Below, piece by piece: positions 8,084 to 13,092 of a stretch of 64,000 nucleotides of DNA. Origin of the DNA: Escherichia coli. Lineage in GTDB: Bacteria > Pseudomonadota > Gammaproteobacteria > Enterobacterales > Enterobacteriaceae. The DNA lies in assembly GCF_003334785.1 (NCBI RefSeq), contig NZ_QOWV01000014.1; one strand, written 5' to 3'. Position 1 is the first letter of the stretch. Every line of letters starts with the position of its first letter. The notes below the pieces were generated by a model that saw only the letters and a program-made list of their open reading frames with translations, was not told where the DNA came from and did no database searches. The translations under genes were made by a program, and so were the position numbers.

Positions 8084-8757
8084 CAAACGTTCTGATTGTT
8101 GAAGATGAACAGGCTATTCGTCGCTTTCTGCGCACGGCGCTGGAGGGCGACGGGATGCGCGTCTTTGAGGCCGAAACGCTGCAACGCGGCTTGCTGGAAG
8201 CGGCAACCCGTAAGCCAGATTTGATTATTCTCGATCTCGGCCTGCCCGATGGTGATGGGATTGAGTTTATCCGCGACCTGCGCCAGTGGAGCGCGGTGCC
8301 GGTGATTGTGCTTTCCGCACGCAGCGAAGAGAGCGACAAAATCGCCGCGCTGGATGCCGGAGCGGATGATTATCTGAGTAAGCCGTTTGGCATTGGCGAA
8401 TTGCAGGCCCGTCTGCGCGTCGCATTACGCCGCCACTCTGCCACCACCGCGCCCGATCCGCTGGTAAAATTTTCCGATGTTACCGTCGATTTAGCCGCCC
8501 GCGTGATTCACCGGGGTGAGGAAGAGGTGCATCTCACACCAATTGAGTTCCGCCTGCTGGCGGTGCTGCTCAACAATGCCGGAAAAGTACTCACCCAGCG
8601 CCAGCTCCTTAACCAGGTGTGGGGGCCAAACGCGGTCGAACACAGTCACTATTTGCGTATTTATATGGGACATCTGCGACAAAAACTGGAACAGGATCCC
8701 GCCCGCCCACGCCATTTCATTACTGAAACCGGTATTGGCTATCGGTTTATGCTTTGA
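8080..8757 (+). CDS. kdpE: Response regulator KdpE (OmpR family)
   Basis: Track ORF 225 aa starting GTG 8080 inside the sequence ATGTGA that ends kdpD; [37 protein letters not shown]... Confidence 0.95.
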   Translation: MTNVLIVEDEQAIRRFLRTALEGDGMRVFEAETLQRGLLEAATRKPDLIILDLGLPDGDGIEFIRDLRQWSAVPVIVLSARSEESDKIAALDAGADDYLSKPFGIGELQARLRVALRRHSATTAPDPLVKFSDVTVDLAARVIHRGEEEVHLTPIEFRLLAVLLNNAGKVLTQRQLLNQVWGPNAVEHSHYLRIYMGHLRQKLEQDPARPRHFITETGIGYRFML

Positions 8758-8792
8758 ATATTAATTTTAATACAGCCTGCCTTTTATTAATT

Positions 8793-8822
8793 AAAGCCGT
8801 AATAATAAATACGGCTTTTTAT
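8793..8822 (+). terminator. Intrinsic terminator after kdpE (stem aaagccgt/acggcttt followed by T-run)
   Basis: Inverted repeat 8793..8818 followed by ttttta, read from the sequence. Confidence 0.6.
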
Positions 8823-8990
8823 CTTAAACAACACACAAAAATAACAATTCAATATTTTATATTACTGAGTAAAAAGCTCATCATTAAATAAATTAAGATT
8901 GATCATTTTTTATTGATCACCTTCACAGTTCAACCGTATTTCCTGGATAGAATATCTTCACCTTCATTCACATCAGGAAAGGTAAATTAA

Positions 8991-9095
8991 ATGGAAAATA
9001 ACAGCCGCACTATGCCCCATATAAGGCGGACAACTCATATTATGAAGTTTGCTCATCGCAATAGCTTCGACTTTCACTTCTTCAATGCCCGTTAG
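8991..9095 (+). CDS. speFL: Ornithine-sensing arrest leader peptide of the speF operon (34 aa)
   Basis: Not in the ORF track (too short). ATG 8991 preceded by AGGAAAGG gives MENNSRTMPHIRRTTHIMKFAHRNSFDFHFFNAR, stop TAG 9093..9095; matches the speFL sequence as I recall it. Confidence 0.8.
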   Translation: MENNSRTMPHIRRTTHIMKFAHRNSFDFHFFNAR

Positions 9096-9352
9096 TCTAC
9101 CGACTAAGGGCACTTCAGCGTACAGGTCTTCCTGACTCTCTGTATTACAGGCATATGCCTGTATTCCGCAGTGCTCATTCTCTGTTAACCCTTGTATTAT
9201 CAGCCACCTGACTGGTAAGGGTTTCTGCATTCTGAAAAAAGCAATCTACCTGATTTATTTATCAGCGGGGTAACTTTGCTTTTTTCCGGCACGATCGATT
9301 TCTCATTCGAGAAATTGAGGACCTGCTATTACCTAAAATAAAGAGATGAAAA

Positions 9353-11551: not shown

Positions 11552-12867
11552 GTCAGGCTAAATCGAACAAAATGGGCGTCGTTCAGTTAACCATACTGAC
11601 GATGGTCAACATGATGGGCTCCGGTATCATCATGCTGCCGACAAAGCTTGCCGAAGTCGGGACAATCTCAATTATCTCCTGGCTGGTGACAGCCGTAGGC
11701 TCAATGGCACTGGCATGGGCATTCGCAAAATGCGGTATGTTCAGCCGTAAATCAGGCGGTATGGGCGGTTATGCCGAGTATGCTTTCGGTAAATCCGGTA
11801 ACTTTATGGCGAACTATACCTACGGCGTCTCACTGCTGATTGCTAACGTCGCGATTGCTATTTCGGCGGTTGGTTACGGCACCGAACTGCTCGGCGCGAG
11901 TTTGTCGCCAGTGCAGATTGGTCTTGCGACCATCGGGGTGCTGTGGATTTGTACCGTGGCTAACTTTGGTGGTGCGCGCATTACCGGGCAAATCAGTAGC
12001 ATTACCGTGTGGGGGGTCATTATTCCGGTCGTCGGTCTGTGCATTATTGGCTGGTTCTGGTTTAGCCCGACGCTGTACGTTGATTCCTGGAATCCGCATC
12101 ATGCACCGTTCTTCAGTGCGGTAGGTTCTTCCATCGCTATGACGCTGTGGGCTTTTCTTGGTCTGGAGTCTGCGTGTGCGAATACTGATGTAGTGGAAAA
12201 CCCGGAACGTAATGTGCCAATCGCGGTACTCGGCGGTACGTTAGGTGCGGCGGTGATTTATATCGTCTCCACCAACGTGATTGCCGGGATTGTGCCAAAT
12301 ATGGAGCTGGCAAATTCAACGGCACCATTTGGTCTGGCCTTCGCGCAGATGTTCACGCCGGAAGTGGGTAAAGTCATTATGGCGCTGATGGTGATGTCCT
12401 GCTGCGGTTCGCTACTTGGCTGGCAGTTCACCATTGCCCAGGTGTTTAAATCTTCATCTGATGAAGGCTACTTCCCTAAAATTTTCTCCCGTGTAACCAA
12501 AGTGGATGCACCGGTGCAGGGAATGTTGACCATTGTGATTATTCAGAGTGGATTGGCACTGATGACCATTAGCCCGTCGCTAAACAGTCAGTTCAACGTG
12601 CTGGTTAACCTGGCCGTGGTGACCAATATCATTCCGTATATTCTGTCAATGGCGGCATTAGTCATTATTCAGAAGGTCGCTAATGTGCCCCCCTCAAAAG
12701 CGAAAGTTGCAAACTTTGTTGCTTTTGTTGGCGCGATGTATAGCTTTTATGCGCTGTACTCATCCGGGGAAGAAGCCATGCTGTACGGTTCCATCGTGAC
12801 CTTCCTTGGTTGGACACTGTATGGTCTGGTATCACCACGCTTTGAACTGAAAAATAAACACGGTTAA
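11548..12867 (+). CDS. potE: Putrescine-ornithine antiporter
   Basis: Track ORF 439 aa, MSQAKSNKMGVVQLTILTMVNMMGSGIIMLPTKLAEVG...; ATGA overlap with speF. Confidence 0.95.
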   Translation: MSQAKSNKMGVVQLTILTMVNMMGSGIIMLPTKLAEVGTISIISWLVTAVGSMALAWAFAKCGMFSRKSGGMGGYAEYAFGKSGNFMANYTYGVSLLIANVAIAISAVGYGTELLGASLSPVQIGLATIGVLWICTVANFGGARITGQISSITVWGVIIPVVGLCIIGWFWFSPTLYVDSWNPHHAPFFSAVGSSIAMTLWAFLGLESACANTDVVENPERNVPIAVLGGTLGAAVIYIVSTNVIAGIVPNMELANSTAPFGLAFAQMFTPEVGKVIMALMVMSCCGSLLGWQFTIAQVFKSSSDEGYFPKIFSRVTKVDAPVQGMLTIVIIQSGLALMTISPSLNSQFNVLVNLAVVTNIIPYILSMAALVIIQKVANVPPSKAKVANFVAFVGAMYSFYALYSSGEEAMLYGSIVTFLGWTLYGLVSPRFELKNKHG

Positions 12868-12883
12868 TAAAACAAAGTAAAAA

Positions 12884-12915
12884 AGGGCGATTGAATGATC
12901 GCCCTTTCTGTTTGT
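12884..12915 (+). terminator. Intrinsic terminator after potE (agggcgat/atcgccct stem plus T-rich tail)
   Basis: Hairpin 12884..12905 followed by ttctgtttgtt. Confidence 0.65.
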
Positions 12916-12962
12916 TGGCAAATAGTTCGTTATTTATGCCGCATCCGGCAGATGTAGGGTCT

Positions 12963-13092
12963 AAACGCGATCGAACACAGCAACTATTTGCGTAATTATA
13001 TGGGGCATCTGCGACAAAAACTGGAACAGGATCCGGCCCGGCCTCGCCATTTTATTACTGAAACCGGTATTGGGTATCGGTTTATGCTTTGA
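12963..13092 (+). pseudogene. kdpE-like 3' remnant (last ~41 codons plus stop of a KdpE paralog), preceded by a REP-like palindrome
   Basis: About 130 bp that aligns by eye to kdpE 8628..8757 with roughly ten mismatches; translates ...AIEHSNYLRNYMGHLRQKLEQDPARPRHFITETGIGYRFML-stop, against AVEHSHYLRIYMGHLRQKLEQDPARPRHFITETGIGYRFML in kdpE. No upstream reading frame continues it. Confidence 0.75.

Follow-up and report, generated by a model that had tools for sequence, protein, structure and literature searches.

The closest described counterpart of the feature analyzed here is already known from Escherichia coli K-12 MG1655, where the pseudogene ybfI (b4636) lies between potE and ybfG. Its stretch (NC_000913.3 716721..716870) equals positions 12943..13092 of our window, by which we mean the whole 64,000-nucleotide stretch of E. 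coli DNA that was analyzed, and the two features agree in both locus and sequence. PGAP labels the same stretch [quoted passage not shown] and curated K-12 databases presumably describe ybfI as a fragment of a KdpE homologue. The annotation gives no origin for it, and a literature search for ybfI, b4636 and ybfG/ybfP/potE yielded nothing relevant to the locus. Reading the fragment as a recombination scar, as we do below, would account for an annotated yet unexplained K-12 pseudogene.

In the window, the fragment (here called kdpE') is the left edge of an optional islet, kdpE'–ybfG–ybfP, of 1.7 kb, which lies between potE and pgm. The interval from kdpE to pgm is organized as follows.

8080..8757, plus strand: kdpE, an intact response-regulator gene of 225 aa (ORF list; RefSeq annotation of the identical K-12 sequence).
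8614..8757, plus strand: repeat copy 1, the 3'-terminal 144 nt of kdpE with codons 179–225 and the stop (alignment).
8758..12878, plus strand: the segment between the repeats, starting with the kdpE–speFL spacer (ORFs, annotation).
8991..9095, plus strand: speFL.
9353..11551, plus strand: speF.
11548..12867, plus strand: potE.
12879..12907, plus strand: T1, the potE terminator hairpin (terminator scan, hairpin at 12882..12907; comparison with Nissle).
12879..12891: the first 13 nt of T1, AAAAAAGGGCGAT, repeated in T2 at 14571..14583.
12908..12949, plus strand: S' (a 30-nt spacer) and REP' (a truncated REP, GCCGCATCCGGC), a diverged direct duplicate of 14422..14463.
12949..13092, plus strand: repeat copy 2, kdpE', which is ybfI, b4636 (alignment, annotation; in-frame TAG at 12955).
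13093..13215, plus strand: an AT-rich spacer 5' of ybfG, unrelated to the sequence 3' of the real kdpE.
13216..13866, plus strand: ybfG, a DUF2625 gene, intact in the window and a pseudogene in MG1655.
13907..14401, minus strand: ybfP, an orphan lipoprotein gene (ORF list, annotation).
14422..14451, plus strand: S, a spacer (sequence; alignment to S'/REP').
14452..14485 and 14521..14549, plus strand: the REP pair, REPy and REPz (sequence; sub-threshold Rfam match).
14571..14603, no strand: T2, the terminator hairpin of pgm, the orthologue of the one terminator that separates potE from pgm in islet-free strains.

Local alignment joins kdpE 8614..8758 to 12949..13093 as a single ungapped block, the homology ending one base past the stop codon. 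Up to the stop codon, 130 of 144 positions are identical (90.3%; 12949..13092 versus the kdpE 3' end at 8614..8757). An earlier, sequence-only reading had picked out by eye a repeat of about 130 bp with some ten mismatches; over that stretch (8628..8757 versus 12963..13092), pairwise alignment gives 120/130, or exactly ten. To set the chance level, the 144-nt kdpE tail was slid over both strands of the whole window. The background is 36 ± 5.3 matches and the best unrelated position scores 62/144, so that 130/144 is far beyond chance. At the protein level, 40 of 44 residues match KdpE 182–225 (E = 8e-29).

The same reading was right that the copy keeps the reading frame, for the alignment contains no indel and ends at the same TGA, and its statement that no ORF lies upstream is borne out by the ORF list of the window. 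A TAG stands in frame at 12955..12957, and the sequence upstream of the block is unrelated to kdpE. Because of this TAG and the lack of an upstream ORF, 12949..13092 is a gene fragment. It has neither a start codon nor a receiver domain and only part of the DNA-binding domain, matching Pfam Trans_reg_C at model positions 42–77 of 77 alone. What remains is the dead 3' end of a kdpE allele of Escherichia. In this genome, as had been proposed, the kdpE tail flanks speFL–speF–potE on either side in direct orientation; from the start of one copy to the start of the next it is 4,335 bp, and 4,191 bp separate them.

The sequence-only reading had also raised the possibility that a second, paralogous two-component locus of the kdpDE type once stood here and decayed, leaving only this fragment. 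Part of a Trans_reg_C domain is indeed encoded, and the PGAP name is only generic. However, the similarity to kdpE is at the level of alleles, many of the apparent differences segregating in functional kdpE; the 5' break against the REP is clean and the same in the alleles compared; the homology ends exactly at the stop codon; and nothing resembling kdpD, a receiver domain or the 5' part of kdpE lies upstream. We regard erosion of a second locus as extremely improbable.

Haplotypes were counted over 5,426 complete E. coli genomes. The potE–kdpE'–ybfG junction is present in 1,827 (∼34%), whereas in 3,164 (∼58%) potE is followed directly by pgm and there is no second kdpE tail. At least five structural versions of the kdpE–pgm interval occur in E. 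coli, differing by the presence of speF–potE, by the presence of ybfG–ybfP and by having one or two terminators. In one of these, which we call type C (246 genomes), kdpE stands directly beside ybfP, with neither speF–potE nor ybfG, and the ybfP alleles are deeply diverged. Type C is not a simple chimera of kdpE and kdpE', an idea that we rejected, as its stop codon is followed at once by the REP pair rather than by the ybfG spacer and its kdpE tail is only 87.5–90.3% identical to kdpE'. No closer relationship of kdpE' to the kdpE tails of type C than to those of other alleles could be detected.

These distributions bear on another suggestion of the sequence-only reading, that speFL–speF–potE left the two kdpE tails behind when it first arrived at the locus. 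On this view, a Campbell-type or end-joining insertion next to kdpE would have duplicated its target. In form, the arrangement matches the integration of a circle by way of kdpE tail homology, for which the natural deletion described below would be the reverse reaction. Across the family, moreover, this site does not always hold the cassette: in Citrobacter freundii, kdpE adjoins pgm with no speF–potE between them, and in Klebsiella aerogenes, speF–potE is located elsewhere. Against this, the order kdpE–speFL–speF–potE–pgm without a second tail is found in Salmonella and Enterobacter as well as in the 58% of E. coli genomes noted above, and kdpE' accompanies the ybfG–ybfP islet, never occurring apart from it, in every genome examined. 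Moreover, only speFL, speF and potE lie between the repeats, with no integrase or recombinase gene. Finally, kdpE' is 88–92% identical to E. coli kdpE tails versus 74–79% to those of other genera, and it is therefore younger than the shared speF–potE gene order. As a primary origin, acquisition is largely refuted, and we hold it to be very unlikely.

The substitutions in kdpE' must be read against a kdpE tail that is itself unusually polymorphic, its last 257 nt being 91.7–95.3% identical to the window copy among eight E. coli alleles. Functional E. coli kdpE alleles already vary synonymously at five of the 14 sites where kdpE' differs from kdpE; of the changes at the remaining nine, six are replacement or nonsense and three are silent. 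A diverged functional orthologue was considered as the source of the fragment on the basis of a synonymous excess (8 silent versus 3 replacement changes after the TAG). This argument was rejected because five of the silent differences are ordinary kdpE polymorphisms and the fragment-specific changes look neutral. Another islet allele of kdpE' carries a 1-bp deletion, which shifts the frame, and extra replacement changes. The pattern of change indicates that kdpE' is without purifying selection and decays neutrally, with no function. The REP'|kdpE' breakpoint, the TAG, an H→N change and an I→N change are common to the two islet haplotypes that were compared at the joint, which are ∼5% apart there, and this shared breakpoint and these shared changes point to a single origin of the joint.

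The source of the islet was sought more widely. A genome collection was scanned with YbfG for a kdpE–ybfG arrangement in other species, and no donor species was identified; the only matches were an E. coli contig contaminating a Collinsella MAG and a pair of Paenibacillus genes of 42–44% identity. No plasmid-borne islet was found in a plasmid collection, where the matches were mislabelled chromosomes; it was these that exposed type C. The nearest non-E. coli homologues of ybfG are ∼50–56% identical, and homologues of ybfP are almost confined to E. coli. The closest YbfG/YbfP relatives are in the Logan contigs L014 and L016 (91% and 88% DNA identity), both of which begin inside kdpE' and so cannot show the length of kdpE there. 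Two further Logan contigs are an E. coli of type C (L017) and a noisy assembly of the islet-bearing type (L018). Flank divergence profiles, intended to find an import tract beside the islet, were too mosaic for this purpose; they exposed instead a deep allele at the 5' end of speFL/speF. The K-12 version of the speFL–speF 5' region is deeply diverged and occurs in only a minority of strains, the K-12-like speFL allele being present in 1,700 genomes.

The palindrome that the sequence-only reading had placed just before the fragment is real but partial, apparently a truncated REP, GCCGCATCCGGC at 12938..12949, retaining only about 12 nt of a REP arm and preceded by the potE terminator hairpin (12882..12907). 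REPs are known gyrase-binding sites. Local alignment of S'/REP' to 14422..14463 gives 35/43 identical positions, so the S–REP segment is duplicated at both edges of the islet, which is in addition bounded by the 13-nt repeat of the left arm of the terminator. All islet alleles have this S'/REP' structure. The REP'|kdpE' joint has essentially no microhomology, the two sides sharing one C at 12949. An Rfam scan of the region gave no match at the gathering score. The downstream REP pair (14452..14549) matches the REP-derived naRNA4 at 41.5 bits, below the gathering score of 59.5, and a MicX match at 12870..13055 was set aside as chance (34 bits versus a gathering score of 75). Promoter-like hexamers in the spacer region (13089..13118 and 13144..13171) are consensus matches only, and a 30-codon ORF opening with ATG occupies 13000..13092.

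Because the left edge of the islet duplicates the sequence beside the downstream REP pair, we predicted an arrangement, B*, in which potE is followed by T1, S, the REP pair, T2 and pgm. It was then found in 2 of the 5,426 genomes, R32_14_1F and N96, where a synthetic query matched as a single piece with 100% coverage; the S segment of these genomes is rather diverged, only 91% identical to the query. In B*, a full REP pair occupies exactly the position of the truncated REP.

Taken together, these features suggest, with a probability that we would put at roughly 0.6, that kdpE' marks the new joint created when two versions of the kdpE–pgm interval recombined illegitimately in a single event. 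One parent would be B*, kdpE–speFL–speF–potE–T1–S–REP pair–T2–pgm. The other, which we call C'', would be kdpE–ybfG–ybfP–S–REP pair–T2–pgm, without speF–potE. A break in the first REP after potE would have been joined to about codon 178 of the C'' kdpE, and the exchange would have been completed by homologous recombination in the shared flank, as in homology-facilitated illegitimate recombination. The product would carry both cassettes in tandem, a duplicated S–REP segment and a stranded kdpE tail. Either parent could have been donor or recipient, and a REP hairpin may have been involved in the break.

Two elements of this scheme, the single event and the parent C'', are what we infer from the product. 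The exact C'' parent, an old, full kdpE–spacer–ybfG–ybfP haplotype, was not found, which counts against the scheme. What comes closest are probable deletion derivatives and the 246 genomes of type C, which show kdpE directly beside ybfP without speF–potE but have no ybfG. B* could in principle be a deletion derivative of the islet-bearing type. A secondary re-insertion of speF–potE into a kdpE–ybfG–ybfP genome may have occurred instead; it would be the mirror image of recombination between B* and C'', and the final structure fits both.

A rival account is a tandem duplication in situ. Here, in a B*-type genome, the REP after potE would have recombined illegitimately with about codon 178 of kdpE on the sister chromosome, duplicating a block of kdpE tail–speFL–speF–potE–T1–S–REP', and the second speF–potE would later have been replaced by ybfG–ybfP, through allelic recombination or deletion plus insertion. 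The REP'|kdpE' junction looks exactly as a duplication join point should, linking the right end of such a unit to its left end, and the space between the kdpE stop codon and S–REP does accept alternatives, being empty in Citrobacter, filled by speF–potE in most genomes and by ybfP in type C. But this history needs at least two events, the second of which would have to terminate exactly a single base beyond the stop codon of kdpE', and two copies of speF–potE were not encountered among genomes examined for other features. We consider it unlikely, if more credible than the acquisition or erosion of a locus discussed above.

Whatever its origin, the 144-bp, 90% identical kdpE/kdpE' direct repeat is a substrate for deletion of speFL–speF–potE. 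The sequence-only reading had anticipated that the repeats might support recombinational loss of these genes, and strain CUWW10 is just that: the repeat-bearing type minus the segment between the repeats. Compared with XYEH3934, it has 1 mismatch in 4,458 nt on the left, none on the right, and 4,429 bp gone, so that the one remaining copy of kdpE runs on into what otherwise lies downstream of kdpE'. The repeats share identity runs of 29, 20 and 19 nt, and the crossover falls in the final run of 19–20 identical nt, TATCGGTTTATGCTTTGAA. With flanks nearly perfectly matching a repeat-bearing strain, CUWW10 fits deletion between short diverged direct repeats, whether RecA-dependent or of slippage type. 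It is a recent deletion derivative, and one of two genomes in which kdpE is fused to the ybfG spacer; the other, GF4-3, has a K-12-like islet allele 98.4% identical to the window and may be a deletion derivative as well. Clean cases are rare, two among ∼1,830 repeat-bearing genomes, and other losses of speF–potE in the region came about through IS1, independently of the repeats.

A further and improbable extension would be that the acid-inducible ornithine decarboxylase–antiporter module, speFL–speF–potE, is facultative and recurrently excisable in the islet-bearing third of E. coli, its loss being selected in particular niches, and that the space from kdpE to the REP pair before pgm is a hot spot in which cassettes are exchanged and stacked through REP-associated breaks. 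More immediately, the deletion in a natural isolate matters wherever speF/potE or the SpeFL leader serves as a marker or model. The practical value is otherwise modest, this being ordinary genome evolution, and the understanding of Kdp regulation and polyamine metabolism is unchanged by these findings.

The locus invites comparison with two kinds of known system. First, integrase-borne islands with att-type repeats, such as tRNA 3'-end duplications, likewise have the 3' end of a gene duplicated beyond an accessory-looking block. In contrast to such islands, however, the kdpE' case involves no integrase, recombinase or tRNA; the block between the repeats is conserved and it is the block outside them that is optional; and the repeat is 144 nt long with a ragged REP junction rather than a defined att core. 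Second, the joint resembles the join points of homology-facilitated illegitimate recombination and of duplications in being a single, nearly microhomology-free joint. As in other scars of illegitimate recombination, it connects sequences otherwise separated by 4 kb or belonging to different haplotypes, with ordinary homology on the other side and one parent, B*, present in extant genomes. Unlike in observed recombination events, the joint here is known from its sequence, and the second parent would be reconstructed from its type C relatives.

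Local alignment of kdpE (8080..8757) with the region after potE gives a single ungapped block, 8614..8758 against 12949..13093, in which 130 of 144 nt are identical when counted to the stop codon; we call the downstream copy kdpE'. When the 144-nt tail is slid along both strands of the window, the chance level is 36 +/- 5.3 matches and the top unrelated site reaches 62, so the similarity is real. The sequence-only reading had described a repeat of the kdpE end of about 130 bp with some ten mismatches and the same frame and stop, and both points hold: its own coordinates give 120 of 130 identical positions, and the block runs ungapped to a common TGA. 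Homology ceases one base later, where the downstream sequences become unrelated. The kdpE' product matches KdpE 182-225 at 40 of 44 residues and covers only the final 36 of the 77 positions of the Trans_reg_C model, and the fragment carries an in-frame TAG at 12955. To its left lie only the potE terminator hairpin (T1, 12882..12907), a 30-nt spacer and a 12-nt REP remnant. Nothing coding precedes it, as had been judged by eye; the REP-like palindrome noted there appears to be a truncated REP, reduced to that remnant.

The repeats had also been proposed to be a footprint of insertion of speFL-speF-potE, the cassette between the two kdpE tails. This is largely wrong. Gene order is kdpD-kdpE-speFL-speF-potE-(one extra gene)-REP pair-pgm in Salmonella enterica and kdpD-kdpE-speFL-speF-potE-pgm in Enterobacter hormaechei, which indicates that speF-potE was placed between kdpE and pgm before Escherichia. 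In Citrobacter freundii and a Citrobacter-like metagenome contig, kdpE directly adjoins pgm, and in Klebsiella aerogenes speF-potE is at another location. Since kdpE' shares 88-92% identity with the kdpE tails of E. coli, as against 77-79% with those of Salmonella and Citrobacter and 74% with that of Enterobacter, it was copied from an Escherichia-type kdpE, long after that placement, and the repeat therefore cannot mark the first arrival of the cassette.

The extra Salmonella gene (locus L025, 17700..18185; Pyridox_ox_2 family, 161 aa) occupies the potE-pgm gap, which in E. coli holds the kdpE'-ybfG-ybfP islet described below and is evidently a recurrent insertion site. The E. hormaechei record CP103578.1, labelled a 517-kb "plasmid," has the core chromosomal block kdp-speF-potE-pgm-seqA-fldA-fur, and PLSDB lists several 4.9-Mb E. 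coli chromosomes as "plasmids" (loci L012 and L013); such records are apparently mislabelled or cointegrates.

Structural types of the kdpE-pgm interval in 5,426 complete E. coli genomes, classed by junction sequences
Type A: potE-kdpE'-ybfG junction, the window's form; 1,827 genomes
Type B: potE followed directly by pgm (Nissle 1917, O157:H7, O104:H4); 3,164 genomes
Type C: kdpE, next a 108-bp REP pair, next ybfP, without speFL-speF-potE, kdpE' and ybfG; 246 genomes

The remaining genomes are mostly IS-disrupted forms. Type A equals type B plus 1,692 bp (12892..14583), a block with the 13-nt repeat AAAAAAGGGCGAT, the terminator's left arm in the potE/pgm gap, at both edges. This islet carries kdpE' first, then ybfG (DUF2625) and ybfP (an orphan lipoprotein), whose closest relatives outside E. 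coli are distant or absent. The variable element is thus the islet rather than speF-potE.

Within the islet, ybfG (13216..13866) is intact in the window, with 216 codons; that of MG1655 differs at 13424 and 13541 and is called by PGAP a pseudogene interrupted by an internal stop, so the window comes from a strain other than MG1655. Alleles of ybfP (13907..14401; loci L012, L013 and L017) are 7-12% apart between strains whose flanking genes are 97-98% identical, and YbfP, with 27 protein clusters in total, has almost no homologues beyond E. coli. A 1.9-kb contig assigned to a Collinsella sp. MAG (JAIJJM010000630.1) is 100% identical to 12769..14667, almost certainly because E. coli DNA contaminates that bin.

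How kdpE' came to lie there is suggested by its left flank. The 42 nt beside it (12908..12949) are a diverged direct duplicate, identical at 35 of 43 positions, of 14422..14463, which comprises a spacer and the first REP arm and runs from near the ybfP start to the REP pair before pgm. This duplication pointed to type A as a composite of two simpler arrangements. One parent (B*) would have been potE-T1-spacer-REP pair-T2-pgm, where T2 is the pgm terminator hairpin, and the other kdpE followed by ybfG-ybfP-spacer-REP pair-T2-pgm. A hypothetical B* query assembled from window pieces was matched in one piece over 100% of its length in 2 of 5,426 genomes (R32_14_1F and N96), in which the T1 hairpin is the same and the REP is complete at the position of the type A remnant. 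On this view, type A would have arisen when B* was cut within or at its first REP and its left portion became linked to codon ~178 of a kdpE preceding ybfG-ybfP; the joint has one shared C. Type B would derive from B* by loss of the sequence from one terminator left arm to the other. The sole bidirectional potE/pgm terminator of most E. coli looks like a fusion of T1 and T2 (left arms at 12879..12891 and 14571..14583 in the window), which are still separate, with the REP pair between them, only in those two genomes.

Type C demonstrates the circulation of old haplotypes in which kdpE lies beside ybfP and speF-potE is absent; identity of its ybfP alleles to the window's is only 88-93%. The most economical account is one illegitimate joint and one homologous exchange between two haplotypes of the kinds just reconstructed; the incoming DNA may have been either the speF-potE side or the ybfG-ybfP side. 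The main weakness of this reconstruction is that the exact second parent, a kdpE-ybfG-ybfP haplotype, was not found among the genomes, and in-situ tandem duplication followed by cassette replacement is a reasonable rival origin for kdpE'.

From 8758 to ~10200 (the spacer ahead of speFL, speFL itself and the initial ~850 nt of speF) the window carries a deeply diverged allele, the divergence beginning directly past the kdpE stop codon: relative to Nissle, O157 and XYEH3934, identity is ~72% over 8758..9352, 86-92% over 9353..10200 and 96-99% over the rest of speF-potE. The K-12-like speFL allele occurs in 1,700 of 5,426 genomes, a total near the islet's 1,827. The last ~250 nt of kdpE (8500..8757) are also unusually polymorphic within E. 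coli, eight alleles being 91.7-95.3% identical to the window's copy, against mostly 95-100% in upstream kdpD/kdpE windows.

That the repeats could support recombinational loss of speF-potE is borne out, as a rare event. A chimeric query (kdpE plus the sequence downstream of kdpE') found one-piece matches in three genomes. Set against the type A strain XYEH3934, CUWW10 shows 1 mismatch over 4,458 nt of left flank and 0 on the right, and precisely the 4,429 bp separating the repeats are missing; the crossover lies in the final 19-20 nt of identity. The same arrangement occurs in GF4-3 on another kdpE background, and a close type A partner for it was not found in the collection; KL53 lost the segment via IS1. 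Insertion sequences have acted repeatedly in this interval: E500002 carries an IS200/IS605 element between potE and T1, IS1-associated deletions run from kdpD to ybfG in 2017-01-4CC and from speFL to kdpE' in KL53, and IS1 lies within ybfG in several strains.

A second islet haplotype (EM10-18-28 and E500002), ~5% diverged across the joint region, shares with the window the breakpoint, the TAG and the H->N and I->N changes; its kdpE' has a 1-bp deletion and more replacement changes and is labelled "frameshifted" by PGAP. Of the 14 differences between kdpE and kdpE' in the window, 5 are at sites synonymously variable among functional E. coli kdpE alleles. The other nine, specific to the fragment, comprise 6 replacement or nonsense and 3 silent changes, which argues that its intact frame is incidental. 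These patterns suggest a single copy in decay. We found no conserved open reading frame in kdpE', an Rfam search gave nothing above threshold, and the promoter-like hexamers near 13089..13171 do no more than match the consensus; no function is indicated. A full-length, sub-threshold match to Vibrio MicX at 12870..13055, spanning the potE terminator and the fragment (34 bits against a gathering score of 75, E = 8e-5), was treated as chance.

The window is E. coli and differs from K-12 MG1655 at 5 positions across 12.4 kb around the locus, and the K-12 reference record has the pseudogene ybfI (b4636) at the matching position, between potE and ybfG; PGAP labels the fragment a winged helix-turn-helix protein, "incomplete; missing N-terminus." Curated K-12 resources describe ybfI as a KdpE homologue fragment. 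The literature searched yielded no paper on it. kdpE' is an already known pseudogene, and interpreting it as the scar of recombination between alternative haplotypes adds new detail, of an ordinary kind.
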